This document shows, one piece after another, positions 3,869-29,296 of a stretch of DNA of 64,000 bases. Source of the stretch: an uncultured Verrucomicrobiae bacterium (GTDB lineage: Bacteria; Verrucomicrobiota; Verrucomicrobiia; Chthoniobacterales; Chthoniobacteraceae). The notes beneath the pieces were generated by a model, which made no database searches, was not told the DNA's origin, and worked only from the letters and a program-made list of their open reading frames with translations. Where the stretch lies: positions 1,024,001 through 1,088,000 of the forward strand of contig CAWIKF010000002.1 in the NCBI GenBank assembly GCA_963836755.1, written 5' to 3'. Each line of letters opens with the position of its first letter. The stretch's first letter is position 1. The translations under genes and the position numbers were made by a program.

Positions 3869-4484
3869 TCAGCCCGCAAACGCCACCTGCACGATGTCGC
3901 TCATCTCGCCGACTTCCTCGTCGTTAATCACCCCACGCGCGGCGTATTCGCGCGTCTCCGCCATGCCGGGAGTTTTCAGCGGCGTCTGGTCGTCGAACGG
4001 GAATTTCTTCCGCTGGATGCCGACAAGCCTCCACGAGGTCGTGCCGCCGATGCGCGTGTAGATGTTCACCAGCTCGGCGTAAGCCTTTGAGCCGGTGATG
4101 CGCACGCTGCCCGGAAACGCCTCCGCCTTGATCTTCGGCTTGATCGCGTTTGGATCGTGCGCCGTCGTCTTGGTAAAAACATTCATCGATGTCGCCCATG
4201 CCATCGGTGAATTTCGTGTTGTTCTTCAGGTTATTGATGAACGCTCGCAACGCCTCGCTTTGCTGCGAATAAAGCTGCGCGGCATTGGCGGCGGCCGCGA
4301 CGACGGCGTTCTCGGCATCGACCAGCGTCTGGTAGGTGGTGATGAGCGGGATGAGCAGCGCGTCGGCGGCGGCAAGGTCGGCCGCATCGAGGCCGAGCGC
4401 GACAGCATTGGCATGGGTTTGCGCTTTGAGGTTGATGAAAAACGCGAGCCGGTTTTCGTGGGAATCTGGGATGAAGTCTGCCAT
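3869..4484 (-). pseudogene. Orphan conserved-hypothetical protein (helical N-half, beta-rich C-half) split by a single-base insertion near 4195-4197
   Basis: ORFs 3924..4484 (MADFIPDSH...) and 3869..4204 (...MNVFTKTT...VAFAG) join into one 204-aa protein if one base is removed from the 616-nt span. This may be a sequencing error. Confidence 0.7.
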
Positions 4485-4645
4485 GGGATTTTGTTTTCTG
4501 GGGTTTACTGCTGCGGTTTCTAGCCGCGGGTTTTGTTTTGCTGGAGTTCGCGCTTCAAAGCGCTGCTACAGCGGATCGTGGAGAGTTTCTGGGGTTTTAT
4601 GCTGAAAATGAAGGAGTTGCGTCAAAAATGCGCCGTTTCGGGCAT

Positions 4646-4897
4646 GAACCGTCGTCTCCCGGGTCGGAACCGGGACGTCCCGGCTCCGATCCGGGAGCTC
4701 CCGACTTTGACCCGGGACGTCCCGGCTGTGAACCGGGAGCACCCGGCTGGAGCCCGGGAGTTCCCGGGCCGGACTTGGGACGTCCCGACTTTGACTCGGG
4801 AGCACCCGGCGCGGACCCGGGAAGCGCCAACTCCGACTCGGGACGCCCCGGCTTGCAGACGGGAGACGACGGGGGCGAGCCGGGAAGCGGCGTTGAG
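4646..4897. repeat. Tandem array of about 12 degenerate 21-bp units with a 14-bp palindromic core (ccgggANNTcccgg)
   Basis: Units such as gaaccgggacgtcccggctcc (4667), gatccgggagctcccgacttt (4688), gacccgggacgtcccggctgt (4709) and gaaccgggagcacccggctgg (4730) at exact 21-bp spacing. Confidence 0.92.
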
Positions 4898-4951
4898 CCG
4901 CCGCATCGCCGGGAAAAGCCGCCGGGCGGCGTCTCCGTTCCGCCGGGGCAC

Positions 4952-4976
4952 AAAAAAGCCGTCCAATAGGACGGCT
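4952..4976 (-). terminator. Rho-independent terminator on the minus strand
   Basis: 8-bp stem agccgtcc/ggacggct with a 4-nt loop, followed by a T-run on the minus strand. Confidence 0.8.
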
Positions 4977-5100
4977 GGGAAATTCGAGATTTAAAACTTC
5001 ACCGGACGCCGAAGCATCGGGGGTCGCGGGATTTGGCCTTTTGAAAGCGCCACACTCGTCGAACCGCAACCCCGATATTCCACGCATCGCGGCTTCGTGC
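4952..5100 (-). ncRNA. Candidate structured RNA (long bulged hairpin ending in a terminator), family unrecognised
   Basis: Nested pairings 5010-5015/5092-5097 and 5016-5029/5064-5076, plus an apical tggc-cttt/aaag-gcca hairpin. A C-A mismatch on + becomes G-U on -. Confidence 0.4.
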
Positions 5101-5185
5101 TTAGCAGGAATCCCGAAACCGCTGCAAGCAAAACTTTAAAAAATGTTTTTGCCCCCGTTGATTCGCGTTCGGTGGGAAGAAAGAC

Positions 5186-6910
5186 TCAGCTTTTGCGCGT
5201 CATCCCGAGGTCTGCGGAGGCTTTGCCAAAGGTCTCTTCAAGCTGCCGCGTGCGCATGACGATCGGCTCGTAGATTTTCCGCTGCGCCGCGCAAAAAGTC
5301 TGCAGCGGCTGGAAAATCAACGTCAGCTCCTGGTAGAAAAGTGCGATCGCGTGCCGCAGATGATCCTCGACGGGCGCGAGCACTTCCTCGCGCTTGCGCG
5401 CCATCTGCGTGCGGAATTCGGCGATGATTTTGTTGCGTTTCGCAACCGCAACGCCTGCGCCGAAAAGGGCCGCGACGCCAGCGACCATGCCGGTGACATC
5501 GACGATGGCGATGTGCGCGAGCGCCGCTGCGATGGCCGCCGCGCCGCCGAGTGCCGCGATTCCGGCGGGCACGCGCAGCCATGCGGAGGCATCGCTGAAC
5601 GCCTTCGTCATCTGATCCTCGATTTGTTTGTTCGACATCTTTTCCATCAACGTCAGCGCGATTCGCTGGAGCAACGCCTCGCGCTCGCGGACAAAGTCGG
5701 GCGGGCTCGATGGCATGTGCATCTCGGTGGTGAAATTTTTCAAAAGCGATTCGTGGAGCTGTTGCCAGACGCTTTTCAAGTCGCCCTCGAGCAGCTCGAT
5801 GGAGTTCTCGATCTGCCGCTTCAAGGTGTCGTGCAGACTCTGGTCGATGCTTTCCTGGAAATCGGCGTGCCACTTTTCCTTGCGGAAGATCAGCTTCAGC
5901 GTCTGCGTCCACGTGAGCCGCTCCTGGAGCAATTCCTCGGCGCCTTTTTGCGAGCGCTCGTAGCTTTGCGAAAGCGACCACATGACGCCGCCGACCTGCC
6001 GCAGCGATTGCTCCTCGCGCTCGTCGAGGATGCGCTCGAGCTCGTGCAAACGCTCGATGTCTTTTTCCACGGTCGTGAATGCGGCCGCCGCTTTTTCGCC
6101 GAGCTCGCGCAGCACGACCTGCCCGGTCTGGCAGACGGAGCGGAGCTTCGCGAGCCGCGTCTCGCCGTGGGCGACGGTCTGGTTGATGTAATCCTCGACC
6201 TTGTCAAAGTTGCTTTCCTTCAGCATCCGTTCCTTGTCCGTCGCGTGAGTTTTTGCGAACAAGGCGTTCTTTGCCGAGACGGCGAAAACCGGCGGGCTCG
6301 TGCCGAGTTTCTCGCGAGCGGTCTGTTGTAAATGTTTGACAACCGCGTCCACTTCGGTCGCGCTGCGCAAGTCCGCCTGCTGGACGATGAAGACAACGTG
6401 CTTGAGCCATTTTTTCTGCACGAGATGGAGAAATTCCCACGCGGAGGCGGCCCACGGGTTTGTGATGGAAAAAACGAAAATCACCAGGTCGGCCATCGGC
6501 AGGAATTGCTCGGTGATGGTCTGGTGATCGGCGATGATCGTGTTCGTGCCGGGCGTGTCGACGACGTTGAAGTCGCGCAGGAAATTGCTCGGGCGGTAAC
6601 ATTCCGTGAGCTTGTCGCCGATGTTCACGTCGCGCTCCTCGCCGTATTTGAAGACGTAGATTTTGTCCGTGGCGGGCAGCACATCCACGCGGCAAAACTC
6701 GCGGCCGAAAAGCGCGTTGAGCACGCTCGATTTGCCGGCTTTGACCTCGCCCATCACGACGAAGAGAATCGGCTCGCGCAGGCTCGCATTCAGGTTCTGC
6801 AGCGTTTCGAGCGTCGCCGGTTCCGCATGCAAATCATGCGCGAGCGTCGAGAGAGAAAACAGCGCGGTGCCCAGCTGCGCGCGAAGCTGAAAGTAGTCGT
6901 CGCCGATCAT
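5186..6910 (-). CDS. Bacterial dynamin-like GTPase
   Basis: G1 GEVKAGKS, G2 LPAT, G3 DTPG, long helical stalk and two C-terminal hydrophobic helices. Start placed at MIGDDYF. Confidence 0.85.
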   Translation of the reverse strand: MIGDDYFQLRAQLGTALFSLSTLAHDLHAEPATLETLQNLNASLREPILFVVMGEVKAGKSSVLNALFGREFCRVDVLPATDKIYVFKYGEERDVNIGDKLTECYRPSNFLRDFNVVDTPGTNTIIADHQTITEQFLPMADLVIFVFSITNPWAASAWEFLHLVQKKWLKHVVFIVQQADLRSATEVDAVVKHLQQTAREKLGTSPPVFAVSAKNALFAKTHATDKERMLKESNFDKVEDYINQTVAHGETRLAKLRSVCQTGQVVLRELGEKAAAAFTTVEKDIERLHELERILDEREEQSLRQVGGVMWSLSQSYERSQKGAEELLQERLTWTQTLKLIFRKEKWHADFQESIDQSLHDTLKRQIENSIELLEGDLKSVWQQLHESLLKNFTTEMHMPSSPPDFVREREALLQRIALTLMEKMSNKQIEDQMTKAFSDASAWLRVPAGIAALGGAAAIAAALAHIAIVDVTGMVAGVAALFGAGVAVAKRNKIIAEFRTQMARKREEVLAPVEDHLRHAIALFYQELTLIFQPLQTFCAAQRKIYEPIVMRTRQLEETFGKASADLGMTRKS

Positions 6911-6923
6911 CCCTCGCGCTCGT

Positions 6924-7769
6924 TCAGCGCGCCGCGTTTGCCACGGGCGAAGCCGCCGCAGATGGCGAAGCCGCGGGGACATCCGGCGTTTTTTTGTTTA
7001 CTGCGCTTCCTTTTTTCAACTCCGGCCGCGGGCCGCCTTTGTCCATCGCGATCAATTCCGAGACGGTGACGAATTTGTAACCACGCGCCAGCAGCGTGTC
7101 GAAAACTTCGGGCATCGCCGCGATCGTCGTCGCATGGATATCGTGCGACAAAATGATCGAGCCGGGGCGCACGCCGGCGAGGATGCGGCGCGCGACGGTG
7201 GCGGAGTTGCGGTCTTTCCAATCGAGCGGATCGACGTCCCACAAAATAATTTTGAACCCGAATTCCGCGTGCGCCCACTGGCGCTGTTTCGCCGTGAAGT
7301 CGCCATACGGTGGCCGCATCAGCGTCGGCGTCACACCGCCCGCCTGCGTGATGATGTCCTGCGTTTTTTGCAACTGGTTGCGCACGGCGGCCTCGGGCAT
7401 TTTCGCGAAGTCGGGATGCGTGAGCGAATGGTTGCAGACCTCGTGGCCTTCCGCGATCTCGCGCTTGACGAGTGCTGGATTGGCCGCCGCGTTTTCGCCG
7501 ATGAGGAAAAAGGTGAGCTTGATGAGTTTCTTCGCCGCGAGGTCGAGCAGGCGCGGCGTGTTCGTCGCGTGCGGTCCGTCGTCAAAAGTCATCGCGATGT
7601 AAGGCCCGTCGACATTGACTTCCGAGTAAGTGATCTTCGGCGCGGCGGCAGTTTTCGGCGCCGCAGCGCCGGCGGGATCGACCGGCGAAGCTGTGGCAGC
7701 GGGCGTTTGCGCCGGGGCGGAAGCGGCGAGCATCGCGCAGGCCGCGGAGAGAAAAAAGGTTCGAACCAT
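6924..7769 (-). CDS. Secreted polysaccharide deacetylase (NodB/CE4 family)
   Basis: TFDDGP, NHSLTH, RPPYG, DPLDW and ILSHD motifs; signal peptide MVRTFFLSAACAML. Confidence 0.93.
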   Translation of the reverse strand: MVRTFFLSAACAMLAASAPAQTPAATASPVDPAGAAAPKTAAAPKITYSEVNVDGPYIAMTFDDGPHATNTPRLLDLAAKKLIKLTFFLIGENAAANPALVKREIAEGHEVCNHSLTHPDFAKMPEAAVRNQLQKTQDIITQAGGVTPTLMRPPYGDFTAKQRQWAHAEFGFKIILWDVDPLDWKDRNSATVARRILAGVRPGSIILSHDIHATTIAAMPEVFDTLLARGYKFVTVSELIAMDKGGPRPELKKGSAVNKKTPDVPAASPSAAASPVANAAR

Positions 7770-7834
7770 TTTCAAAAAACTTGTGCGTGACCTTATGACG
7801 GCATCTCGCGAAATCAATGCGCGATTCGCTTTCG

Positions 7835-8701
7835 CTAGAGGAATCGCGTCAAAATTGGCGCGAGCTTTGTCGCAGTCGCCGCCGGCCAAAGCGATTTGTC
7901 GGTGACGAGCGCGCCGTCGAGCGAGCGATGCTCCGGCCAGTCCGGCGTTAGCGGAATCTGCGGAATCACGTGCGCGAGAATCTTTTTCGCCGCCGCGGCA
8001 TTCGCGAGCAAATGCGCGATAACTTTGTCGGCAGTCACCGGCTCCTCGTCGATTTTCCAGCAATCGTAATCAGTGATCATCGCCATCGTCGCCAGCGCGA
8101 TCTCAGCTTCGCGCGCGAGCTTCGCTTCGCCGAGATTCGTCATGCCGATGACGTCAAAACCGAGCCGGCGATTCGTCTCCGATTCCGCGCGCGTGGAAAA
8201 CGCCGGGCCGTCCATGTTGACGTAAGTGCCGCCGTTGTGCGCGGTGTAGCCGAGCTCTTTCGCGGCGTTAAACAAAAGTTGACGCAAGTTTTTGCTGATC
8301 GGATCGGCGAAACCAACGTGCGCCGCGATTCCCTCGCCAAAAAAAGTGTGCGTCGCGCGCTGGCTCGTCCGGTCAAAAAATTGATCCGGCAGCAAAATGT
8401 GGCGCGGCTCGTAGGCGGCCTGCAAACTGCCAACCGCGGTCACGCAAATGATCCAGCGCACGCCGAGCGAGCGGAGCGCCCAGATATTCGCGCGATGATT
8501 TAACTCATGCGGCAGGATGCGATGTCCGCGCCCGTGCCGCGGCAAAAACCAAACCTGCCGCCCCTCGATTTTGCCGCCGAAGATTTTGTCCGAAGGCGCG
8601 CCGAATGGCGTCTCGACTTCGTGCTCGATGGGGTCGGTCAATCCCTCGATTTGATAAAGTCCGCTGCCGCCGATGATGCCGATGCCGGGCTCGTCCGTCA
8701 T
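7835..8701 (-). CDS. mtnP: S-methyl-5'-thioadenosine phosphorylase
   Basis: IGIIGGSGLY, LPRHGRGH, GPAFSTRAES and TDYDCW motifs. Confidence 0.93.
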   Translation of the reverse strand: MTDEPGIGIIGGSGLYQIEGLTDPIEHEVETPFGAPSDKIFGGKIEGRQVWFLPRHGRGHRILPHELNHRANIWALRSLGVRWIICVTAVGSLQAAYEPRHILLPDQFFDRTSQRATHTFFGEGIAAHVGFADPISKNLRQLLFNAAKELGYTAHNGGTYVNMDGPAFSTRAESETNRRLGFDVIGMTNLGEAKLAREAEIALATMAMITDYDCWKIDEEPVTADKVIAHLLANAAAAKKILAHVIPQIPLTPDWPEHRSLDGALVTDKSLWPAATATKLAPILTRFL

Positions 8702-8804
8702 TGCCGCGGCGCGATTAAAGGTGGGGAAAATTGCGCGTGAAAGTTCATGCGTTCGCGCACGCCATTAAACGAAGCGCGCGGCGAGGGGAAGCGAAAGATG
8801 CGCG

Positions 8805-9695
8805 TCAAAAATCGTCGAGCGGATGGTGCAGCAGCGCGATGAATTCCTTTTGCGCGGATGTGCGCGGATGATTGCGCCTGCTCAGGATGCCGAGCGGCCG
8901 CCGCATTTCCGGCTTCGAAATTTCCACCGCGGCGAGCGTGCCGCTTTTAACTTCCTGCAGAATCGTGTTTTCAGGGACAATCGAGACGCCGTTTTCGATT
9001 TCGACCGCGCGCTTGACCGTCTCGATGTTGTCAAACTCGATCGCCTGCACAATCGAAACGCCCTCCGCCCGAAAGTGCTTGTCGAGCACTTTGCGCGTCG
9101 GCAGGTCGGGCTCAAATGCGATGAATTTTTCGCCCTCGAGCTCGCAAAGTTCGATCCGTTTGCGCGCAGCGAGCCGATGGCCCGGATGGCAGATGAGCAC
9201 GAGCCGATCGGTGAGAAATTCCTCGCATTGCACGCCGTGCCGCTTCGATGGATACGAGACGAGGCCGAGGTCGACTTCGCCCGAAAGGACGAGGCCGTAG
9301 ATTTCCCACGAGCGCCGATACTCGATCCGCACCGCGACGTTCGGGTGCAGCGCGCGAAACATTTTCAAATACGGCGGCAGCTCGTGCAGTCCGATGCTGT
9401 AAATGACCGCGATCTTCAAGTCGCCGGCGACAATGTTTTGCAGTTCGTTCAGCCGCGAGGCGAGGTGCTCGTAGATGCCGTTAATCTCGCGCGCTGCCGC
9501 GAGAAACGCGTCGCCTTCCTGCGTCAGCGCGAAGTTGCGCGGGCCGCGTTCGATCAGCTTCACGGCGAACTTTTTTTCGAGCGCCATGATCTGCTGGCTG
9601 ACGGCGCTTTGCGTGATGCGATTTAATTTCGCAGCTTGTGAAAAACTGCCGGTCTCGGCGAGGTCGCAGAAAATTTTAAACGTTTCGATTTGCAC
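8805..9695 (-). CDS. LysR-family transcriptional regulator
   Basis: HTH signature GSFSQAAKLNRITQSAVSQQI. GTG start placed at 9695, divergent from yggS. Confidence 0.93.
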   Translation of the reverse strand: MQIETFKIFCDLAETGSFSQAAKLNRITQSAVSQQIMALEKKFAVKLIERGPRNFALTQEGDAFLAAAREINGIYEHLASRLNELQNIVAGDLKIAVIYSIGLHELPPYLKMFRALHPNVAVRIEYRRSWEIYGLVLSGEVDLGLVSYPSKRHGVQCEEFLTDRLVLICHPGHRLAARKRIELCELEGEKFIAFEPDLPTRKVLDKHFRAEGVSIVQAIEFDNIETVKRAVEIENGVSIVPENTILQEVKSGTLAAVEISKPEMRRPLGILSRRNHPRTSAQKEFIALLHHPLDDF

Positions 9696-9728
9696 GCGGC
9701 GGCGGGAAAATGCGTGATCGTTTCGCGC

Positions 9729-10436
9729 ATGGACATCATTTCGCACCGGCTCGATGAAGTGAATGGAAAAATCGCAAACGCCGCTGCGAAGTCGGGCCGG
9801 CGGGCTGATGAAATCGAACTCGTCGCCGTTTCCAAGACACATCCGCCGGAGGCGATTCACGAGGCGCTCGATGCGGGCCAGACGCTTTTTGGCGAGAGCC
9901 GCGTGCAGGAGGCGCGTGCGAAAATTCCGCTGCTGCCGGGCCGCGCGCGGTGGCATTTCATCGGACATTTGCAGAAAAATAAAATCCGCCACGCGCTCCC
10001 GCTTTTCGAACTTTTTCACGGCATCGATTCGATCGAGCTCGCGCGGGATTTGCAGCGAATCGCGGACGAAGCCGGCGCGCGGCCGCGCATTTTGCTGGAA
10101 GTAAATGTCGCGGGCGAAGCGTCAAAGTTCGGCTTCAAACCGGAGACGCTCCGCACGCAAATCGAGGAGCTGGTCGCACTCGATCGGCTGGAAATCGAAG
10201 GGCTGATGACGATCGCGCCGTTCGCGCCGGAGCCGGAAAATTCGCGTCGATATTTCGCGGCGTTGCGCGAGCTGCGCGATGATTTGAAAGTCCAGATCGC
10301 GCTGCCGCAGCTCTCGATGGGAATGAGCGGCGACTACGCGGTTGCCGTCGAGGAAGGCGCGACGCTTGTGCGCGTGGGCACGGCGATTTTTGGCAAGCGC
10401 AGCGGGAAAAATTTTCGCGCAGCCGATGCGCCTTGA
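9729..10436 (+). CDS. yggS: YggS-family PLP homeostasis protein
   Basis: LVAVSKT, FGESRVQE, WHFIGHLQKNK, LSMGMSGD and VRVGTAIFG motifs. Confidence 0.96.
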   Translation: MDIISHRLDEVNGKIANAAAKSGRRADEIELVAVSKTHPPEAIHEALDAGQTLFGESRVQEARAKIPLLPGRARWHFIGHLQKNKIRHALPLFELFHGIDSIELARDLQRIADEAGARPRILLEVNVAGEASKFGFKPETLRTQIEELVALDRLEIEGLMTIAPFAPEPENSRRYFAALRELRDDLKVQIALPQLSMGMSGDYAVAVEEGATLVRVGTAIFGKRSGKNFRAADAP

Positions 10437-10472
10437 ATTGCCGCGTTCGCTTTTTTCTGATAGCGCAACTGC

Positions 10473-11411
10473 ATGAACTTTTCTCACGTGACGCGGCGCG
10501 AGGCAGTTCGGCGGATGCTGCTTTTCAGCGCGGGGCTCGCGACTCCGGGAATGTTTGCGCGCGCGGCGGAGAAAAGTGGGGACGGCGCGCTGCATCTTTT
10601 TTTCATCGGCGACTGGGGCACCGGCGATGCGAGTCAAAAGTCGGTCGCGGCCGCGATGCAAACTTACGCGCGGGCGAGCGGTGTCACGCCGCATGCGCTA
10701 TTCATGCTCGGCGACAATTTTTATGGCGCGCTGAGCGGGCCGGATTCGCCGCGCTGGAAAAACGAATTTGAGGAAATGTATCCCGCGTCCGTTTTTCCCG
10801 GCGCGTGTCACGCGCTGCTCGGCAATCACGATTACGATGACCAGCCCGGTGGCGAGCTTTTCCAACTCGCGTATGCGCGCAAGGCCGGCACGCGCTGGCG
10901 GATGCCCGCGCGATGGTATCGGCTCGATTTGCCGGAGGAAAAACCGGTCGCGACTTTTCTCTGCACCGACACGCATTTTGCGAAGCTCAGCCGCAAGGAA
11001 ATCGCGGCGCAGGCGGCGTGGTTGAAGGCTGAGTTTGCGCGGGCGCGCACGACGCCGTGGATCTTTGTTTGCGGCCATCATCCGGTTTACAGCGTCGGCA
11101 CGGAGCACGGAAACACGCCGGAGCTCAGTCCCTGGCGCGAACTTTTTCCGCGCGAAAAAGTTGCCGCTTATATTTGCGGCCACGAGCACGATCTCCAGCA
11201 TTTGCGGAACAGCGACGACTCAACCGATTGGTTCATCTCGGGCGCGGGCGGTCGCGCGTTGTATCCGGTCAAAGCCGGCACGCACGCGAGCTTCGCGCAA
11301 TCGGCTTTCGGTTTTCTCCACATGGCGGTCGGCGCACGGAGTTTCGAGGCGAAATTCATCGGGCAAAACGCGGACGCACTTTACCAGTATGAGCGCAAGG
11401 CTGTCGCGTAG
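10473..11411 (+). CDS. Tat-exported metallophosphoesterase (purple/tartrate-resistant acid phosphatase-like)
   Basis: GDWG, GDNFY, GNHDY, GHHP and GHEH metal ligands; TRR Tat-like signal. Confidence 0.9.
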   Translation: MNFSHVTRREAVRRMLLFSAGLATPGMFARAAEKSGDGALHLFFIGDWGTGDASQKSVAAAMQTYARASGVTPHALFMLGDNFYGALSGPDSPRWKNEFEEMYPASVFPGACHALLGNHDYDDQPGGELFQLAYARKAGTRWRMPARWYRLDLPEEKPVATFLCTDTHFAKLSRKEIAAQAAWLKAEFARARTTPWIFVCGHHPVYSVGTEHGNTPELSPWRELFPREKVAAYICGHEHDLQHLRNSDDSTDWFISGAGGRALYPVKAGTHASFAQSAFGFLHMAVGARSFEAKFIGQNADALYQYERKAVA

Positions 11412-11460
11412 TGCGCGGAAAAACCGCGCGTCACGGGCGCGGGCTGCGTTATAATTTCCA

Positions 11461-13080
11461 ATGGATGCTGAAATGCCGGCGACAACGGATTCGTATCTCG
11501 ACGAACACACCGTCCGCTCGTGGCTTTTGACGACGGATCACAAGCGGATCGGCATCCTGTATTTGCTGACGATTCTCGTCTTTTTTTTCATCGCGAGCGT
11601 GGCCGCGGCGATCATGCGGCTCGAACTGCTGACGCCGCAGGGCGACCTCGTCACGAGCGAGACTTACAACAAACTTTTCACGCTGCACGGGACGCTGATG
11701 GTCTGGTTTTTTTTGATTCCGGCAGTGCCAAATGTGCTCGGAAATTTCGTGCTGCCGATGATGCTCGGCGCGCGCGACGTCGCATTCCCGCGACTCAATT
11801 TACTGAGCTGGTATATTTTCCTCGGCGGCGGTTCGCTGGCGCTCTGGTCGCTGATTCATGGTGGCGTCGACACCGGCTGGACTTTCTACACGCCTTACAG
11901 CTCGACCTATGCGAACTCGCACGTGATCTCGATGGCGGCGGGGATTTTCATCTCGGGATTCGCATCGATTTTGACCGGACTGAATTTCATCGTGACCATC
12001 CACAAGATGCGTGCGCCGGGTTTGACGTGGTTTAAACTTCCGCTGTTTGTCTGGTCGCTCTACGCAACGAGCCTCATCATGGTCCTCGCGACGCCGGTGC
12101 TCGCGATCACGCTCGCGCTGATGTGCGTGGAACGGGTCTGGGGCGTCGGCATTTTCGACCCGAAAATCGGCGGCGATCCGATTTTATTCCAGCATCTGTT
12201 TTGGTTTTATTCGCACCCGGCGGTTTACATCATGATCCTGCCGGGAATGGGCATCATCAGCGAAGTCATCACCTGCTTCGCGCGCAAAAAAGTTTTCGGC
12301 TACGGCTTCATCGCGGCTGCGAGCATGGCAATCGCAATCCTCGGGTTTTTGGTCTGGGGCCATCACATGTTTGTAAGCAGCCAATCGATTTATGCCGGCA
12401 TGGTCTTTTCGATTTTGAGCTACCTCGTCTCGATCCCGTCCGCGATCAAAGTCTTCAACTGGACGGCGACTTTATATAAAGGCTCGATCACTTTCGGAAC
12501 GCCGATGTTATACGCGCTCGGCTTCATCGGGCTGTTCACGATCGGCGGGCTGACCGGACTTTTCCTCGCGGCGCTCGGCATCGATGTGCATGTGACTGAC
12601 ACCTATTTTGTGGTCGCGCATTTTCATTACATCATGGTCGGCGGAATGGTGATGGCGTTCATGGGCGGGCTGCACTTTTGGTGGCCGAAAATCACCGGCC
12701 GCATGTATCCGGAGTTTGCAGGGAAGCTCTCGGCGATGATCACGTTCATCGGATTCAACCTGACTTTCTTTCCACAGTTCATTCTCGGCTATCTCGGAAT
12801 GCCGCGGCGCTATCACGCGTATCCGCCGGAGTTTCAATTTTTTCACATCATCTCGACGGCCGGCGCATCGATCCTCGGCGTCGGCTATCTGCTGCCGTTC
12901 TGTTATTTTTGGTGGTCCTTAAAATGGGGACGTCGCGCGAGCGGCAATCCGTGGAAGGCCACGGGCCTCGAATGGCAGACGCCATCGCCGCCGCCGAAGC
13001 ATAATTTTGCCGAAACGCCGGTCGTGACGAGCGGGCCGTATAATTACGACCCGAACGAGGAAACGTTGATGCCAGCTTGA
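11461..13080 (+). CDS. ctaD: Cytochrome c oxidase subunit I, A2 type
   Basis: Haem/Cu ligands in LHG, YSHPAVY (A2 YS motif), WGHH and HFHY. Confidence 0.96.
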
Positions 13081-13083
13081 TTT

Positions 13084-14027: not shown

Positions 14028-14097
14028 GCGCGGCGCGCCCATCCGAGCCGCGGCGCGCGCACGAAATGCTGCTGCCGTCCTGAGTTTTCGCAGCATT

Positions 14098-14979
14098 ATG
14101 AAACCCACTACCATTGCTCAATTCTTCGCGCGTCAAAGTTGGCTCGAGCCGCTCGAGCACGCGCTCTCCGCAGTCGCCTCAGTCACGTTGAAACCGGCCG
14201 GGCAGAGCGTCCGAAATTTCCTGCACGGCACATGGTTTGGCCATCCGCTCCACCCGGCGCTGATCGATGTGCCGCTCGGCGCGTGGAGCGTGACGACGCT
14301 GCTCGATCTTTATGAATGGAGCAGCGATGACACTTCGCTCGCGCGCGGCGCGGACGCGGCGCTCGGCATCGGCCTCGTCGCCAGCCTCGGCGCGGCCGCA
14401 AGCGGATTGAACGACTGGAAGGATACCGACAAGCCCGCGCGCCGCATCGGCGCATTGCATGGCATGCTCAATCTCACCGCGATGGGACTTTATTTCACTT
14501 CCTGGTTGAAACGCAAAAGCGTCGACTGCGATGACCGCGACACCGCGCTTGGCCTTAGCTTCGGCGCGTGGCTGCTCGCGATGTGCGCCGCATATCTCGG
14601 CGGCCATCTTGTTTACGGCGAGCGCATCGGCGTCGATCACGGCGAGCGCGAACCGGTGGCAAATTTCACGCCAGTCATGCCGGAAAAAGATCTCGGTGAG
14701 AACGAACCGCGCCGCGTGCGGGCAAATGGCGTCGACATTTTAATCGTGCGCCGCCTCGGCAAAATCTTCGCAATCGGCGAAAAGTGCGCACATCTCGGCG
14801 GCCCGCTTTCTGAGGGAAAATTTGAGCGCGACACCGTCACCTGTCCGTGGCACGGCTCGCAATTTTCATTGGCCAACGGAGCGGTGCTCAATGGCCCGGC
14901 GGTCTTTGGCCAGCCTTGTTTTGAAACGCGCGTGCATGAGGGAAATATCGAGGTCCGCTCGCGAAAAACAGAAGCCTGA
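14098..14979 (+). CDS. DUF2231-like membrane domain fused to a Rieske [2Fe-2S] domain
   Basis: GHPLHPAL, HGMLN and GGHLVY membrane domain; CAHLGG...CPWHGS Rieske motif. Confidence 0.88.
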   Translation: MKPTTIAQFFARQSWLEPLEHALSAVASVTLKPAGQSVRNFLHGTWFGHPLHPALIDVPLGAWSVTTLLDLYEWSSDDTSLARGADAALGIGLVASLGAAASGLNDWKDTDKPARRIGALHGMLNLTAMGLYFTSWLKRKSVDCDDRDTALGLSFGAWLLAMCAAYLGGHLVYGERIGVDHGEREPVANFTPVMPEKDLGENEPRRVRANGVDILIVRRLGKIFAIGEKCAHLGGPLSEGKFERDTVTCPWHGSQFSLANGAVLNGPAVFGQPCFETRVHEGNIEVRSRKTEA

Positions 14980-15029
14980 GGCTTGCCTCGGACGTCAGCC
15001 CGGCAGATGCTTCCTCGCAAAGGAGAGAC

Positions 15030-15224
15030 ATGAAAAGCGTAACTTTGAAACTGCCGCAAATCGCCCTGATCGCCGGCACGCGCGCGCTGCTTGGCGCAGG
15101 CATCGCTTTGCTGCTCGCGGATAAATTGGAGAAGGACGAACGCCGCATCGTCGGCTTCATCCTCACAGGCATCGGCGTTCTCAGCACCATCCCGCTCGCC
15201 GCAGAGATTTTTGACGAGCTTTAA
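15030..15224 (+). CDS. Small two-TM hypothetical protein
   Basis: Strong RBS aaggagag; two hydrophobic helices. Confidence 0.7.
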   Translation: MKSVTLKLPQIALIAGTRALLGAGIALLLADKLEKDERRIVGFILTGIGVLSTIPLAAEIFDEL

Positions 15225-15268
15225 CGCCTCATTGACCGGCGGCGGCGCGGAATTTAAGCTGCCTGACG

Positions 15269-15589
15269 ATGCGTCTTGCCCCGGCAAACATCCAGGTCAT
15301 CGGCGACGAGCTTGCGGTCGCGTGGAATGATGGGACCGAAAGTTTTTTAAAACTTGAAAACATCCGCCGCGCCTGTCCCTGCGCCGGTTGCAGCGGAGAG
15401 CCGGATGTGCTCGGGCACGTGGCCGCGCCGGAGTTGTCGCACACGCCCGGCAGTTTTCGCCTGCGCAGTTTTCAATTTGTCGGCGGCTACGCGTGGCAGC
15501 CGACGTGGGAGGATGGGCACGCGACGGGGCTTTACGCGTTTCCGTATTTGCAGCGGCTCGCCGCAGAGACACTTGAGGAAAAGCGATGA
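15269..15589 (+). CDS. DUF971 (GBBH-like N-terminal) domain protein
   Basis: W-x-DG, RRACPCAGC, VGGYA and WEDGHATGLY motifs. Confidence 0.85.
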   Translation: MRLAPANIQVIGDELAVAWNDGTESFLKLENIRRACPCAGCSGEPDVLGHVAAPELSHTPGSFRLRSFQFVGGYAWQPTWEDGHATGLYAFPYLQRLAAETLEEKR

Positions 15590-16047
15590 AGCAGCGCGGC
15601 AAAGTTTTCCTCATGGTCTTTTGTTTCGCCGTGTGCGCGACGGCCGCCGTGCTGAATCATCGCTGGCAAACGCCCGCCGATCGCGTGCGGCCGGCGGAAC
15701 TTTACTCGATCGTCAACAGCCAGCTCGCCGCATTTCGCGAAGCCGATTTTGTGCGCGCGTATGACGCGGCATCGAGCGGTATCCAACAAAAGTTTAACGT
15801 CCGTCAATTCACTGAGATGATTCAGGCGGACTACGCGAGGATGGTTCGCGCGGATCGGGTCGAGTTTGGCTTCGTTGAAACCGAAGGCCGGCGCGCGATC
15901 ATCCAGGTTTTTTTCATCGATAAAATCGGGCAGGTGACCCCGTGCCTTTACACGTTGGTGAACGAAGGCGAGACGTGGAAAATCGACGGCGCGCGCCTGC
16001 TGCGCCGCTGGCCAGCCGAGGCGCGGCTCGGCGGAATCTGGAGCTGA
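15586..16047 (+). CDS. DUF4864-like exported protein
   Basis: QLAAFREADFVRAY.AS..IQQKF pattern and WKIDG end. Confidence 0.75.
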   Translation: MKQRGKVFLMVFCFAVCATAAVLNHRWQTPADRVRPAELYSIVNSQLAAFREADFVRAYDAASSGIQQKFNVRQFTEMIQADYARMVRADRVEFGFVETEGRRAIIQVFFIDKIGQVTPCLYTLVNEGETWKIDGARLLRRWPAEARLGGIWS

Positions 16048-16050
16048 TTT

Positions 16051-16995
16051 CTAGAGCGGCAGCGTTGTGCGCAAAACGCTTGCGGAGCCGCTCTGCGCCT
16101 TGATTGCACGGATTTCCAGTGAAGCGGGAACGAGGAAAAAGTCCCCGGCATTGAATCCGGCTCCCGCGCATTCCACGCTGCCTTCGAGCACCGTGAAAAG
16201 TGCGCACTCTCCTTGCGGCGCCGCTTCCCGCGGAGTGGCGAGTTCCCAGCGCTCGATGCGGAAATATTCGCACTCGACGAGGATATCCGCGGCGGGCCGT
16301 TGCAGCGTCGGCGCGACGTCGTCAAAGTCGATCGATTGCAGCGATTGTTCGATGTGCAACTCGCGCGCTTTTCCATCGAGGCCGACGCGATTCCAATCGA
16401 ACACGCGGTAAGTCGTGTCGCTGTTTTGCTGCACCTCGACGATCACGTTTCCGGCGCCGATCGCGTGCACGCGGCCGCTCGGGATGAACATCGTGTCGCC
16501 GGCCTGCACAGGCACGCGATGGATTTTTTTCTCGACCGTGCCGTCCTGCAGCGCCTCGGCAAAACTTTCACGCGTCACGCCCGGCTCAAGTCCGGCGAAG
16601 ATGTCGCCGTCGCCGTGATTTTCCACGATGAACCACATCTCGGTTTTCGGTTCGCCGTTCAATTCCGGCGCGATTTTTGCCGGCGGATGCACCTGCACCG
16701 AAAGACGCTCCTGCGCGTCGAGCAGCTTGAATAAAAGCGGGAAACGCGGCGTGACCGGCGCGCTCGCGCCGAAAACCGGCTGGCGGTAATCGGTCCAAAG
16801 TTCGTGCAAAGTTTTACCGCGCAGCGGGCCGCTGTGAACCACGCTTTGCGCTTCCTCCCGGTCCACGATCTCCCACGATTCGCCGATGCGCGCGGTCGGC
16901 GGCAACTTTTTGCCGAAGAGCGTTTCGAGCCGGCGCCCGCCCCAGACGCGCTCCATGAAAAGCGGTTCAAAAATGATCGGCTCGGTGATTTTCAT
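16051..16995 (-). CDS. manA: Type I phosphomannose isomerase (cupin)
   Basis: RVWGG, IGESWE, LSVQVHP, KTEMW and EVQQNSDTTYR motifs. Start placed at MKITEP. Confidence 0.92.
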   Translation of the reverse strand: MKITEPIIFEPLFMERVWGGRRLETLFGKKLPPTARIGESWEIVDREEAQSVVHSGPLRGKTLHELWTDYRQPVFGASAPVTPRFPLLFKLLDAQERLSVQVHPPAKIAPELNGEPKTEMWFIVENHGDGDIFAGLEPGVTRESFAEALQDGTVEKKIHRVPVQAGDTMFIPSGRVHAIGAGNVIVEVQQNSDTTYRVFDWNRVGLDGKARELHIEQSLQSIDFDDVAPTLQRPAADILVECEYFRIERWELATPREAAPQGECALFTVLEGSVECAGAGFNAGDFFLVPASLEIRAIKAQSGSASVLRTTLPL

Positions 16996-17139
16996 AAGGT
17001 TGGTTCGCGCGCGACGCGGGACGCGACTGGATGAAGCGTTTTTCCCTCGTTCGCTGTGGTGGTGCAAAATACTTCGGGCGCAAAGTCTGGCGCAATCTTC
17101 AATTGAAAGCGGAACAGTTGAGCTTAGTATGGGCCGCTA

Positions 17140-19545
17140 ATGCCACGCAGGGAGGAAAATCACACGCTGAGCGAAGTCATCGGTCTGCTTTTGCTCATGC
17201 TCGGCACCGGGCTGTTCCTCGCGTTGATTTCCTACAAGCCGAAGGACGTGCCGGAATGGGTGCCGATCATTTCGCACAGCGCGCCTGCGAATCATCCGGC
17301 GCAAAATTTCATCGGGCCGCTCGGTGCGATCGTCGCGGGCCTCTCCTATTTTTTATTCGGCGCGGCGTCGTTTTTGATCGCAGCTGTCATGCTCGGCTAC
17401 GGCGGCGCGAAGCTGCTCGTGCCGGACGTGCGCGTGACGGCGCGCTCGGTCTGGGTGATCGCGTTCGTCATTTCCGGCGCATGTCTCGTGGAGCTGCAGC
17501 CGCTTTTTTTAAATGACTGGACGGCGCTGATGAAAATTCCCGGCAAGGGCGGCTGGATCGGCCATTGGCTCGGCGTCAAACTTTTCTTCAACTCGCTCGG
17601 CCCCGTGGGCTCGCGCACTTTGCTGGCGTGCATTTATCTGACGAGCCTCGTGCTGATGACTGGCGTGCGGCCGATTCGTCTGCTGCGGCAGATCATCGCT
17701 GCGCCCGGCATTTGGCTCGAAAAACATCGGCAGTGGAAAATGGCGCGCGCGACTGAGCACGGCCGTCTTGCGATGCAGGAGCAGAAAATCAAACGCGAGC
17801 AACAGCGGATCGAAAAGCAGTTGCGCAAAAAGAAATTCGACGCGCCGGCCGAGCCCGAAATGGACCTTGACGACGCTGCCGCTGCCCGCCCGCTGCCGCA
17901 GATCATCGACACCGCGATCGCCACGCCGAAGTCGGCCAATGAAAAGGCGAAGCTCGTCCCGCGCGAGCCGATCAGCTACGAAAATTATTCGCTGCCGGAG
18001 CTCGATTTGCTCGAAGCGCCGGACATGGAAAATCGGCTCGCCGCGGACCCGAACGAATTGAAGGACGTGCAGGCGACGCTCATCGAGACGCTCGCGCAAT
18101 TCGGCATCAGCGTCGCGCCCGGCGACATCACGCGCGGACCGACGATCACGCGCTACGAGGTTTACCCGGCGAAAGGCGTGCGTGTGGATAAAATCGTGGC
18201 GCTCGAGCGCGACCTCGCCCGCGCCACGCGCGCCGAGCGGATCAACATCCTCGCGCCGATTCCCGGCAAGGACACCGTCGGCATCGAGATTGCGAACTCG
18301 AGCAAGATGAAAGTCACGCTGCGCGAGCTGCTCGAATCCGACGATTGGAGCAACACGAAAGCGAAAATCCCGCTCGCGCTCGGCAAGGATGTTTACGGAA
18401 AAACGATCATCGCAGACCTCGCGGTCATGCCGCATTGCCTCGTCGCCGGCACGACCGGCTCGGGCAAAAGTGTCTGCATCAACTCGATCATCGCGAGCAT
18501 GCTTTACCGCTTCACGCCGGACGAAATGCGTTTCGTAATGATCGACCCGAAAGTCGTGGAAATGCAGGTGTATAACACTTTGCCGCACCTTGTTGTCCCG
18601 GTCGTGACCGATCCGAAAAAGGTGCTGCTGGCGCTGCGCTGGGTCATCGACGAGATGGAGAAACGCTACAAAATTTTCGCGAAGACAAACGTGCGCAACA
18701 TCACGAGCTTCAACGCGCGCCCGAAACCGAAATCGCAAAAGGAGCTCGACGCCGAGGCCGATGCGAAAGCTGAAAAACTTTCTGCCGATGAAATGGACGA
18801 GCCCGCCGCGGAAGGTTCCGTCGAGGAATATCTCCAGAGCGTCACGAACATCCGCGTGCCGCGCGAGGATGACATCATTGTTCCCGATCACATGAGCTAC
18901 ATCGTGGTCATCATCGACGAGCTCGCGGACTTGATGCAGACCGCGCCCGCCGATGTCGAGAGCGCGATCGCCCGCATCACGCAGATGGCGCGCGCGGCCG
19001 GCATTCACATGATCGTCGCAACGCAAACGCCGCGCGCGGATGTCGTCACGGGCGTCATCAAGGCGAACATCCCGAGCCGCATCGCCTTCCAGGTGGCGTC
19101 AAAACTCGATTCGCGCGTGATCCTCGATGAAAACGGCGCGGACCGGCTGCTCGGCCAGGGCGACATGCTTTACCTGCCGCCCGGCACTTCGCGCATGACT
19201 CGGGCGCAGGGCGTGCTCGTGACCGACGAGGAAATCCGCCGACTCGTCGAGTTTGTCTCGGCACAAAGCGCGCCCGCCTTTGAAACGGACATCCACGAAA
19301 AACTGCAGTCGAGCGGGAAGATCGAGGAAGACGTCAGCGAGGAAGATGAAGAGCTCGTGCAAAAATGCATCGAGATCATGCGGCAGGAAAAAAAGGCGAG
19401 CACGTCGCTTTTCCAGCGCCGTCTGCGGCTCGGATACACGCGCGCCGCGCGCGTCGTCGATATTCTCGAGCAGCGCGGATATGTCGCCCCGGGCGATGGC
19501 GCGAAGCCGCGCGAAATCCTCGTCGATCTCGACGCGCTTGTTTAA
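17140..19545 (+). CDS. ftsK: DNA translocase FtsK
   Basis: N-terminal 4TM, GTTGSGKS, IDPKVVE, IIDELADLM and gamma domain LRLGYTRAAR. Confidence 0.97.
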   Translation: MPRREENHTLSEVIGLLLLMLGTGLFLALISYKPKDVPEWVPIISHSAPANHPAQNFIGPLGAIVAGLSYFLFGAASFLIAAVMLGYGGAKLLVPDVRVTARSVWVIAFVISGACLVELQPLFLNDWTALMKIPGKGGWIGHWLGVKLFFNSLGPVGSRTLLACIYLTSLVLMTGVRPIRLLRQIIAAPGIWLEKHRQWKMARATEHGRLAMQEQKIKREQQRIEKQLRKKKFDAPAEPEMDLDDAAAARPLPQIIDTAIATPKSANEKAKLVPREPISYENYSLPELDLLEAPDMENRLAADPNELKDVQATLIETLAQFGISVAPGDITRGPTITRYEVYPAKGVRVDKIVALERDLARATRAERINILAPIPGKDTVGIEIANSSKMKVTLRELLESDDWSNTKAKIPLALGKDVYGKTIIADLAVMPHCLVAGTTGSGKSVCINSIIASMLYRFTPDEMRFVMIDPKVVEMQVYNTLPHLVVPVVTDPKKVLLALRWVIDEMEKRYKIFAKTNVRNITSFNARPKPKSQKELDAEADAKAEKLSADEMDEPAAEGSVEEYLQSVTNIRVPREDDIIVPDHMSYIVVIIDELADLMQTAPADVESAIARITQMARAAGIHMIVATQTPRADVVTGVIKANIPSRIAFQVASKLDSRVILDENGADRLLGQGDMLYLPPGTSRMTRAQGVLVTDEEIRRLVEFVSAQSAPAFETDIHEKLQSSGKIEEDVSEEDEELVQKCIEIMRQEKKASTSLFQRRLRLGYTRAARVVDILEQRGYVAPGDGAKPREILVDLDALV

Positions 19546-19558
19546 CGATTTGTAAAAA

Positions 19559-20398
19559 ATGGTCGAAACCGTCGGTAAAAAACTCGAGCTGGCTCGCAAG
19601 CGCAAACAAATCTCCATCGAGGAAGCCGCACGCGCCACGCGCATGCGCCCGGACAAAATCCTCGACCTCGAAAAGGACAACTACACGAACTTTCCGAACA
19701 TGACTTACGCGAAGGGCTTCCTGCTCATCTACGCGAAGTTTTTGAACGTTGAGGTCAGCGACTTTGCCGACACCCTCGCGACCACGAACCCGGTCGGCAT
19801 CGAGGATTACGAGTATCTCAACGCCAGCGAACGCCGCGTCCCGCACGCCGCGCATCGCGCTCCGCGGCCCGCGCTCTGGCCGTTCTTCATGGTGATGGCC
19901 GTCGTCTTCGGCGCGATCTGCGTGATGTATTTCATCCTCACGCTCAAGCGCATCGCCGCGCCCGACACCAGCGACATCGCGCTCCTCGCCTCGCCATCGC
20001 CGCTGCCATCGGCGTCGCCTCAGGCGTCGGTCGAAGTTCGCCGCGTCTCGGCCGTTGCTTCGCCGCTCGCGATGGCCGCAACTCCCGCGCCGTCCGCGAT
20101 TCCCGCGCCGTCGGCGATGCCGACCGTTGCCTCCACGCCGGAGCCGACAGCGACGCCGACGCCTGTGCCGGTCTTGAAAGACGTGGCGCTGAAGCCGATC
20201 AAAAAAACGTGGGTGAAAGTCGTCAAAGATGTGCAAGATTCACCGCCCATCTTCGAAGATTATCTCTATCCCGATGCGCACGGCCTGAAGTTCCGCGGCT
20301 ACAAATTCTGGATCGACGTCCGTGAGAAGGACGCAGTGGAAATCACAAAAGATGGCGCGCCCGTCGCGATCGATGGGAACTCCGTCACCATCGAGTGA
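19559..20398 (+). CDS. rodZ: RodZ-like HTH membrane protein
   Basis: N-terminal HTH (YAKGFLLIYAKFL), single TM, Pro/Ala linker, C-terminal beta domain; ftsK-rodZ-rimO context. Confidence 0.8.
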   Translation: MVETVGKKLELARKRKQISIEEAARATRMRPDKILDLEKDNYTNFPNMTYAKGFLLIYAKFLNVEVSDFADTLATTNPVGIEDYEYLNASERRVPHAAHRAPRPALWPFFMVMAVVFGAICVMYFILTLKRIAAPDTSDIALLASPSPLPSASPQASVEVRRVSAVASPLAMAATPAPSAIPAPSAMPTVASTPEPTATPTPVPVLKDVALKPIKKTWVKVVKDVQDSPPIFEDYLYPDAHGLKFRGYKFWIDVREKDAVEITKDGAPVAIDGNSVTIE

Positions 20399-21786
20399 AT
20401 TCCAAAATCGAAACTCCAGATTCCAAAATCGCGAAGGTCGGCATGATCAGCCTCGGCTGCGCGAAAAATCTCGTCGATGCCGAGATCATGCTCGGCGGCG
20501 TCGCGCAAAACGGCATGCAAATCACCGCCGATGCGGACGACGCCGATGTGCTCATCGTCAACACCTGCGCGTTCATCGACTCGGCGAAGGAGGAATCGAT
20601 CGACGCCATCCTCGACGCGCATGCGCAGCGCGGCCTGCGCAAAAAACCGGGGCAAAAATTGATCGTCAGCGGTTGCATGGCGCAACGTTTTTCAAAAGAA
20701 CTCGCGCGCGAGATGCCGGAAGTCGATGCGTTCATCGGCCTCGACCAGGTCGCCGCTGCCGGAAACATCGTCAGCAACGTTTTAGCGGGTGAAAAATCCG
20801 CGCCGCTCGACCTCGTCACGCGCCGCCCGACTTACATTCCCGATTACGACACGCCGCGCTTCCGCCTCACCGCGCCGCACACGGCCTACGTCAAAATCGC
20901 CGAGGGGTGCAACCATCCGTGCAGCTTCTGCGTCATCCCGCAAATGCGCGGACGCCATCGCAGCCGCACCATCGAATCGGTCGTCGCCGAAGTGCGCGCG
21001 CTCGTCGCCGACGGCGTGCGCGAGATCAATTTGATCAGCCAGGACACCACCTATTTCGGCATGGATCTGTGGGAGCAGCGCGCGAACCCGACGCAGCCGG
21101 TCGATTCCAGCCGCGGGCCGACTTTGACGAAACTTTTACGCGCGTTGCAAAGCATCGACGGCGATTTCTGGATTCGGCTGCTCTACACGCATCCGGCGCA
21201 TTGGAGCGACGAGCTCATTGCCGCCATCGCCGAATGCGACAAAGTCGCCCGCTACATCGACATGCCGCTCCAGCACATTCACGGCGAGATGCTTGGCAAA
21301 ATGCGGCGCGAGACGACCAGCGAACACATCGAGCAGCTCATCGCGCGCATCCGCGCCGGCGTGCCCGGCATCGCGCTGCGCACCACCTTCATCGTCGGCT
21401 TTCCGGGCGAGACCGCGGAACATTTCGAGACGCTCCTCGCCTTCATCGAGCGGACGCGCTTCGAGCGGCTCGGAGTTTTTTCCTATTCGCAGGAGGAAGG
21501 CTCGCGCGCGGCGAAGATGGAGGGTCAAATTTCCGCGAAAATCAAAACCACGCGTTTCCAGCGTGCGATGAAGCTGCAGCAAAAGATCGCCCGCGAGCAT
21601 TCCGAGTCGATGATCGGCAGAACTTTGCGCGTGCTCGTGGAGAAACCGCTGCTCGCTCGCGGCGAATCTGACGCGCCCGAAGTGGACACGCAGATCATTT
21701 TGAAGACGCCGGCGCCCGTCGGCCAATTCGCGAACGTCCGCATCACCGGCACGCAAGTTTACGACCTCCTCGCCGAGCCGGCCTGA
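20395..21786 (+). CDS. rimO: Ribosomal protein S12 methylthiotransferase
   Basis: SLGCAKNLVD, radical-SAM CNHPCSFC, APEVD and TRAM-like C-terminus. Confidence 0.95.
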   Translation: MNSKIETPDSKIAKVGMISLGCAKNLVDAEIMLGGVAQNGMQITADADDADVLIVNTCAFIDSAKEESIDAILDAHAQRGLRKKPGQKLIVSGCMAQRFSKELAREMPEVDAFIGLDQVAAAGNIVSNVLAGEKSAPLDLVTRRPTYIPDYDTPRFRLTAPHTAYVKIAEGCNHPCSFCVIPQMRGRHRSRTIESVVAEVRALVADGVREINLISQDTTYFGMDLWEQRANPTQPVDSSRGPTLTKLLRALQSIDGDFWIRLLYTHPAHWSDELIAAIAECDKVARYIDMPLQHIHGEMLGKMRRETTSEHIEQLIARIRAGVPGIALRTTFIVGFPGETAEHFETLLAFIERTRFERLGVFSYSQEEGSRAAKMEGQISAKIKTTRFQRAMKLQQKIAREHSESMIGRTLRVLVEKPLLARGESDAPEVDTQIILKTPAPVGQFANVRITGTQVYDLLAEPA

Positions 21787-21795
21787 GCGCAGGAG

Positions 21796-22030
21796 GAGGT
21801 TTCGAAAACCAATCCCGGTCTTCTCGACACCTCGGCTTCCCTCGACGAGACCTCGGACGGGGCTTTGCGCGACCTCCATTGCCCTTTCCGAGACCAAATT
21901 GCCCTCGCGGAGAGAAAGATTGCCCTCCGCGAGACCAAATTATCCGTCGCCGAGACCAAATTTGCCCTTTGGAAGGCCTCCATTGCCCTCGCGAAGCTCG
22001 AAAGAGCCCTCGCCGAGACCTCCCCCGGCG
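21796..22030. repeat. Degenerate 21-bp-period repeat array (consensus about gccctcgccgagaccaaattt)
   Basis: Unit starts at 21901, 21922, 21943, 21964, 21985 and 22006 (exact 21-bp spacing). More decayed units with small indels extend back to about 21796. Confidence 0.85.
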
Positions 22031-22062
22031 TTAGCCAGGGCAATCCGGCCCGTCAGAACCTG

Positions 22063-22542
22063 CTACTTTGCAGGAGCTTGCCCCGGTTTTGCGGGCGTCG
22101 CCCGGCCCGGATACCGCGTCGCGAGGTCGGTGTGGATGTCGCCCGCGCTGGCCGCGCCGTGCTTGGCGGCTTCGGCCGTGTTGTTATAGTAGGCGAGGTC
22201 GGCATACATGATTTCGTTGCCGATCACGTTGAAAGTATCGTCGGCCTTTTCCACCAGCAGGCGGAGTCGGGGCAAAAACTTCTGGAATTGCGCGCGCGCC
22301 GTCCGGTCCTTGGTGACCTCGGCGGGGTTCACGAAGCTGGGGAGAAACTGCGGGTTGCTCGCCATGTAGCCCTCGGCTTTTTCGTCAAAAGCGACCGATT
22401 TTTCGCCCAACAGCACCGTGTCATCGCCCGCGTCGCGGCTGATGAGGAAGTTGAGGACCGACTCGATGCCTGCAATATGGGCGTTTACGTCGGTAACATT
22501 CTGGTCGGTGATGGTGACGGAGATGCGGTTTTGGTTGGGCAT
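22063..22542 (-). CDS. Orphan conserved-hypothetical all-helical protein (159 aa)
   Basis: Protein-like composition (QNRISVTIT...GEKSVAFDEKA...NPQFLPSF...DDT...LAYY...DLATRY); codon bias favours this strand. Confidence 0.8.
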   Translation of the reverse strand: MPNQNRISVTITDQNVTDVNAHIAGIESVLNFLISRDAGDDTVLLGEKSVAFDEKAEGYMASNPQFLPSFVNPAEVTKDRTARAQFQKFLPRLRLLVEKADDTFNVIGNEIMYADLAYYNNTAEAAKHGAASAGDIHTDLATRYPGRATPAKPGQAPAK

Positions 22543-29152: not shown

Positions 29153-29296
29153 CGAAATGCGCCGCGACTCGCCTGATGGAAAGCCGATTCGCTCGAGGAT
29201 TTAAACCAGCGAGGCACGTGAATAGAGATCGATCATGCGGAGAAATGGGCGGCACGTTGTGTGCCGGGCGATTCCCGTTTCGCGCGAAATCCCTCC

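Follow-up and report, generated by a model that had tools for sequence, protein, structure and literature searches.

Non-coding bacterial tandem repeats with a constant length of 20–21 nt, equivalent to two helical turns, have been described by Subirana and Messeguer (PMC8161180). According to the accessible part of that report, a genome contains many repeat families of one length but different sequences, and the authors propose that a protein polymerises on the DNA and needs a constant repeat size. The arrays of the genome from which the window (the whole stretch of 64,000 nucleotides analysed here) was taken are similar in having one length and many sequences and in being non-coding. They differ in being tied to genes for predicted helical proteins, on a fixed side, and in having gene-less copies that look like the gene-linked ones, whereas no gene family or linkage is named in the accessible part of that paper. 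A further trait of that class is a short motif common to the repeats of most arrays of a species; here, a motif was present at the edges of 18 of 57 arrays, and no motif was common to the units of different families. The literature searched, with subscription papers and supplements outside its scope, yielded no gene family tied to such arrays. The earlier note on this DNA knew of no named system for the pairing of arrays with genes, and no paper on the pairing was found in this search; the repeat class itself is in print (PMC8161180). The gene-array pairing is real and undescribed; the repeat class is described but unexplained.

KfrA of the IncU plasmid RA3 is reported, in the accessible text, to be a long protein of alpha-helices forming oligomers on repeats by which the promoter of its own gene is overlapped; its helix-turn-helix has been mapped, the repeats are five direct ones of 9 bp, and it contributes to plasmid stability (PMC7783346). 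It is the closest model for the possible working of the first of the two gene families considered below (family 1), the array position of which fits repeats adjoining a promoter, the promoter here being putative; family 2 does not fit. Unlike KfrA, the proteins studied here match no helix-turn-helix family above the Pfam cut-off, their predicted models show long helices and a fibronectin type III (FN3) domain only, the units are of 21 bp, the loci lie on chromosomes and the array of one family is downstream.

The BrickBuilt minisatellite MITE of Porphyromonas gingivalis is a dispersed, spacer-free tandem array with about 20 copies per genome, one 23-nt unit, promoter activity in parts, and a leader and tail with inverted ends; the accessible text describes it as always intergenic and without a partner gene (PMC4596501). 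The arrays found here are likewise dispersed, without spacers and missing at the corresponding sites in relatives, but their units are many and different, their ends show no consistent inverted repeats, some copies lie in frame and there is a partner gene. CRISPR-type or guide-RNA arrays combine a constant repeat and unique spacers with an effector gene, whereas the units here are spacer-free and no effector family is present. Rickettsia palindromic elements, which are non-coding, insert in frame into the surface loops of housekeeping proteins; each is a lone hairpin whose sequence is conserved. The in-frame landing is similar, but phased arrays and a partner gene are found only here.

The two loci of the window

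The features of the two loci are as follows.

3869..4484, minus strand: gene 1 (family 1), about 204 aa, predicted to form a helical hairpin, one helix of which has 55 residues, followed by a fibronectin type III domain at the C terminus.
4485..4638, minus strand: A/C-rich leader with a putative sigma-70-type promoter, read from the letters, adjoining array 1.
4639..4924, no strand assigned: array 1, about 13 dyad-symmetric units with a period of 21, upstream of gene 1.
21794..22030 (about), no strand assigned: array 2, about 11 degenerate dyad-symmetric units with a period of 21, immediately following the gene-2 stop codon.
22063..22542, minus strand: gene 2 (family 2), 159 aa, predicted to be all-helical with a 55-residue helix.

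The lag-21 match of array 1 was 0.62 (window 4639-4924), and Tandem Repeats Finder assigned it a period of 21 with 9.4 copies; its segment score at lag 21 was 85.0, whereas the highest of 5000 triplet shuffles reached 17.8. For array 2, the lag-21 match was 0.48 (about 21794-22030), and the best segment (21896-22017) scored 32.6 at lag 21, against a shuffle maximum of 17.2 (5000 triplet shuffles). Both 21-bp arrays are real and beyond chance, with scores above all 5000 shuffles, and the period claimed for both loci in the earlier note is borne out. The positions it gave, upstream of gene 1 and right after the stop codon of gene 2, were also confirmed, with array 2 beginning no more than about 45 bp from the stop, and no match between the two arrays was obtained with blastn, in keeping with its claim that they share a period but not a sequence. 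Dyad symmetry was supported for array 1 (p=0.002, 500 column permutations) and for array 2 (p=0.004, 5 best units). Homologous arrays occupy the place equivalent to that of array 2 in relatives. The putative promoter of gene 1 has a -35-like hexamer near 4620-4625 and a -10-like hexamer near 4597-4602.

Gene 1 spans 616 bp and is split into two reading-frame pieces in the assembly. A contig assembled from short reads, from a run that is possibly the source sample, has one base fewer than the assembly at 4191, and most close homologues of gene 1 are 204–207 aa long; because of these two observations, we consider the length of 204 aa to be correct and the break to be, most likely, an assembly error consisting of one extra base near 4191. 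The sizes (about 204 and 159 aa) and minus-strand orientation given previously for the two genes were thus right, but their description as orphans applies only to Pfam and NCBIfam, as homologues are many. No Pfam, NCBIfam or PHROG family was found above cut-off for either gene, and no DNA-binding family of Pfam was reached at its cut-off by either protein. Gene 2 has 712 representative homologues at E 0.001, and the close homologues of both genes carry a Verrucomicrobia label from their sources. Judged by sequence, genes 1 and 2 are members of two wide unnamed families.

The predicted model of gene 2 (pLDDT 79.9) has helices at residues 13-29, 46-62, 73-127 and 131-143; a Foldseek comparison with the PDB gave no match at E 0.001. 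All atlas look-alikes belonged to unnamed clusters. The model predicted for an intact homologue of gene 1 (pLDDT 92.2) has helices at residues 10-26, 35-89 and 95-101, followed by a beta domain with a fibronectin type III fold (Z 11.5, rmsd 2.2, 88 aligned). The two models thus share three elements, namely helices of 17 and 55 residues and a short one. By simple arithmetic, the 55-residue helix would measure about 80 A, close to the 71 A taken up by 21 bp. The proteins are neutral to acidic, with family medians of pI 5.3–5.6. Compared by profile, the helical domains of the two families did not match, although their predicted helix layouts agree; the families may be related. A third array-linked family gave a weak profile match to family 1 (probability 63, E 7e-5) and none to family 2.

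Gene-array linkage in homologues and its limits

Among the best matches to family 1 in other genomes, a 21-bp array was present upstream, within 600 bp, at 19 of 26 loci and downstream at one of 26; these loci are the 29 taken as the best of the matches, minus three rows from the window's own genome. The arrangement is reversed in family 2. In metagenomes, a downstream array was found at 15 of 24 scorable loci with a cut-off score of 20, and at 21 of 24 with the laxer cut-off of 15, whereas an upstream array was found at none of 22; in other genomes, after removal of one duplicate locus, the array was downstream at 10 of 13 loci and upstream at none. The metagenome loci were recovered with a pattern derived from a close alignment, a wide alignment giving no usable pattern and pattern scans from single family-2 proteins recovering no loci; 33 loci were found, of which 28 were distinct after the removal of five duplicates and 24 were scorable after that of four short or partial loci. 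In most family-2 loci, the array begins 0–70 bp past the stop codon, and nothing in the intervening stretch is clearly a terminator. Each family has its own side for the array, upstream for family 1 and downstream for family 2.

For background, arrays in the window's own array-rich genome lie upstream of 60 and downstream of 49 of 2403 genes (500-bp flanks), about 2.5%. The enrichment of period 21 in the flanks of homologues, proposed as a check in the earlier note, is thus observed as an excess in both families over this background, although the counts overstate certainty, because kin loci are not independent. The gene-array link holds across homologues, so that the proposal of a paired system withstood the refutation that the earlier note had set for it. 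In a blind ranking of 2814 genes with the profile of the gene-1 helical domain, two array-linked genes came second and third, and the gene ranked fourth, which was not preselected, has a 42-bp-period array upstream. Another superfamily paralogue in the window's genome, also not preselected, likewise has such an array upstream. In two genomes without either gene by profile, 800 kb sampled contained no true 21-bp array, and three low-complexity hits were obtained.

The linkage fails in some genomes. One genome (G004) has 39 family-2 paralogues; among 25 sampled, a 21-bp array lies within 600 bp of only three, in each case on the upstream side, and two more have arrays of 42 or 43 bp upstream. 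Six near-identical copies at unrelated sites in this genome consist of a hairpin, a promoter-like box and the gene, without an array. In two other genomes (G028 and G055), a downstream array was present at three of nine family-2 loci, one of these being a plain 7-mer repeat, and arrays with a period of 22 or 44 were present at two loci. These counts imply that the gene can multiply without the array and that the side can flip. In the window's genome, three to four superfamily genes have no clear array. Unselected samples of gene-rich genomes contained 4 arrays in 200 kb, at most one in 400 kb (G024) and none in 200 kb (G002); the last two counts led us to reject the idea that gene-rich genomes are always rich in solo arrays.

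Arrays across the genome and their movement

The window's two arrays are two of more than 50 in the genome: the 3.18-Mb sequence contains 54 arrays at period 21; no other period between 4 and 40 has more than five, and period 41 has 13. A laxer cut-off gave 64 candidates, 56 of which were kept, the other eight being judged ordinary coding sequence or weak; in some of the edge-motif analyses, seven rather than eight were dropped, giving 57 arrays. Sorted by eye, the 56 kept arrays comprise 19 that precede an unnamed gene or the remnant of one, one before a gene fragment, 30 solo arrays, five in frame within ordinary genes and one downstream of a gene, that of locus 2. The 19 upstream cases do not constitute a test of linkage, because these genes were picked for their adjoining arrays. 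Units are contiguous, degenerate and without spacers, and no unit motif common to the arrays of different families was found. Dyad symmetry was detected in 26 of 54 upstream, solo and in-frame arrays.

Units vary among family-1 homologues and are kept among close family-2 homologues. Two close paralogues in the genome (E 2e-116) share their flanks, yet have unrelated units. The period is kept while the units change among homologues, as anticipated in the earlier note, which had suggested that geometry rather than sequence is conserved.

Several observations bear on movement. A gene-less copy of array 1, with 79% identity over 280 bp, is present at C2:578512; it keeps the putative -10 box and stops just beyond it. 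A gene that we take to be ispG contains an in-frame array of about 95 residues that resembles a gene-linked array and is missing in all 11 of the relatives aligned. Another, presumably encoding AlaRS, has an in-frame array sharing a sharp end with another gene-linked array; of four relatives compared at this site, two lack any insert, a third carries a non-periodic one and the fourth carries a 21-bp array of its own, in the same loop but with a different unit. These names, like those of the neighbouring genes, are our own recognition from sequence rather than tool labels. In a genome of the same genus, the neighbours of locus 1 are kept, with both gene 1 and its array missing between them; for locus 2, no true empty site was found, four relatives having other genes after the upstream neighbour. 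No consistent terminal inverted repeat or target duplication was found in 13 donor-copy pairs, for which the ends are approximate, only short inconsistent words being present. The mobile cassette envisaged earlier is supported by the patchy presence, the copying of arrays to new sites and the emptiness of these sites in relatives.

Of 56 arrays with unrelated sequences, 14 have a short motif, CAGAGTAA, in the flank, versus an expectation of 0.09; the motif has 31 copies in the genome, and a slightly wider form is found at 18 of 57 array edges, 16 times pointing into the array. It forms part of the IspG insert and, on the opposite strand, looks by eye like the -10 boxes before tRNA genes in this genome. 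It was not found at arrays 1 and 2 of the window, and the 26 loci outside the genome contain six one-mismatch matches, with 3–4 expected from the genome rate; as a universal hallmark of the arrays, it was therefore rejected.

Explanations for the pairing

We tentatively favour, at slightly less than an even chance, a cassette consisting of a helical-protein gene and a non-coding, two-turn symmetric array that the protein would bind as a row of dimers. The dimers would line up on one face of the protein's own array. In family 1, a coat over the upstream array would control the gene's own promoter; in family 2, a coat on the downstream array would form a position-independent nucleoprotein site, and this downstream arrangement suggests a role for the array beyond that of an operator. 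Gene-less copies would arise as by-products spreading in some genomes and may be the source of the constant-length 21-nt repeats of the literature, with the enzyme moving the arrays encoded outside the cassette. The cognate protein is favoured as the binder because symmetric sites on one face suit dimers and the long-helix protein is the only constant neighbour. Against it, the proteins are acidic and reach no DNA-binding family at cut-off, and only about half the arrays are symmetric; close paralogues with unrelated units are also hard to reconcile with a strict reading of sequence. Further points against it are the paralogues without arrays in G004 and in the window's genome, the negative profile comparison of the two families and the two gene-rich genomes with almost no arrays in the samples. 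A bolder reading, a new class of minimal selfish element, is that the helical protein measures DNA pitch and coats any two-turn symmetric array, on either side of its gene, and that the nucleoprotein rod thus built helps the array, alone or together with the gene, to be copied into new sites; we regard this as unlikely.

A host protein, either nucleoid-associated or a transcription factor, may read the arrays by sensing spacing or DNA shape, with the helical gene a regulated passenger. This is consistent with acidic gene products lacking a DNA-binding motif, with the free swapping of units between close paralogues and with the excess of CAGAGTAA in flanks, -10-like on the other strand by eye, but neither window array has the motif, and it would be unclear why arrays accompany two families of like helix layout but no family of ordinary genes, or why one array lies behind a stop codon. 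We judge this reading unlikely. Alternatively, the arrays could be selfish passengers, the unit growing by slippage or recombination in a small mobile segment copied by a host or transposon enzyme, with no contact between gene and array. Patchy presence, large copy numbers and in-frame landings in tolerant loops, with one AlaRS loop hit twice independently by different units, point in this direction, as does the greater uniformity of gene-less than of gene-linked arrays (35 vs 20, p=0.004). Neutral expansion would, however, not select one period (54 arrays vs at most five), and it would not hold the side and the distance constant in different families and genera; the 13 pairs yielded no consistent terminal repeat or target duplication. 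We regard this explanation as distinctly unlikely.

Two further readings place the function of the array in its transcript or its translation product. As RNA, the family-2 array would be a protein-bound hairpin tail in the 3' untranslated region, and the family-1 array a separate transcript. The short distance past the stop codon in most family-2 loci, with no obvious terminator seen between, would suit this, and array 1 has a predicted fold of about -185 kcal/mol, a value without a shuffle control, but in family 1 the array precedes the putative promoter, a length of 21 bp fits the pitch of B-DNA and the one-strand folds of several arrays are weak; we consider this reading distinctly unlikely as well. 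The earlier note had also offered the option of a protein paired with a fast-evolving heptad peptide; in this reading, the array would encode a seven-residue-repeat peptide that pairs with the adjacent protein's long helix. In array 2, one antisense frame resembles a heptad helix, and frames free of stops exist in both arrays. However, 12 homologous family-2 arrays (200 nt) have pN/pS values of 0.84–1.44 across the six frames, versus 0.27 for the gene (40 codons, 11 of the 12 loci), each frame is interrupted by stops in some homologues and no codon-position signal was found in the conservation of units. On these substitution patterns, the arrays are non-coding, the five that are translated being so solely as secondary in-frame insertions, and the peptide is largely refuted and hardly credible.

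Bacterial repeats of fixed length and free sequence are a published puzzle, as posed in the accessible part of PMC8161180, and the loci described here provide concrete candidate binding proteins. The in-frame copies constitute a route by which essential enzymes can gain seven-residue repeats. If binding depends more on pitch than on sequence, this would be an unusual mode of DNA reading. If the selfish-element reading, in which the helical protein coats any two-turn array and helps it to be copied, is true, then this protein would be the missing protein behind constant-length satellites, and its arrays would be a source of new heptad repeats in essential enzymes.

Repeats and reading frames within the window

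ARAGORN predicted a tRNA-Gln within window positions 4760-4900. The sequence upstream of this tRNA is array 1, the 21-bp-period array preceding gene 1, and the call therefore lies inside the array; it is most likely a false cloverleaf produced by the symmetric units. Three further features of the window were recorded:

3043-3783, weakly scoring 246-aa frame immediately downstream of gene 1, with a start resembling a signal peptide
29250-29460, period-41 array between genes, scoring 39.6 against a shuffle maximum of 13.4
49442-49582, period-33 repeat within a 2672-aa reading frame

A Pfam search with the 246-aa frame gave no match, and this frame is possibly a surface-protein gene in decay. The period-33 repeat is an ordinary coding repeat. 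The period-41 array is one of eight in the genome of the window (G000) that do not overlap any 21-bp array; at C2:763489, an unnamed gene of 348 aa has another of these eight in its upstream region.

Arrays and insertions at other genes of G000

Three large, paralogous secreted-protein genes (C1:229510, C2:709161 and C2:1904311) have a common N-terminus, and each is preceded, at a distance of 290-530 bp, by an array of 21-bp period that carries the edge motif, a short sequence present in the flanks of a number of such arrays. Two genes with an in-frame 21-bp array carry a second in-frame insertion each, of 35-45 residues, missing from their relatives and presumably resembling REP-type hairpin elements:

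C2:1020285-1022471, IspG
C1:58953-62516, AlaRS

Copies at new sites

Copies comprising array, putative promoter and the first codons of a gene were found at new sites in G000, each truncated within the gene:

C1:273670-274300, 89% over ~640 bp
C2:923700-924200, 96% over 496 bp

Another genome, G004, contains six closely similar genes of family 2, the helical-protein family of gene 2, at unrelated sites (L139, L146, L149, L152, L156 and L159). These copies have in common ~270 bp of upstream sequence, which contains a box resembling a promoter as well as a long hairpin whose arms match perfectly. Their likeness stops where the conserved coding part ends, and the tail therefore differs from copy to copy.
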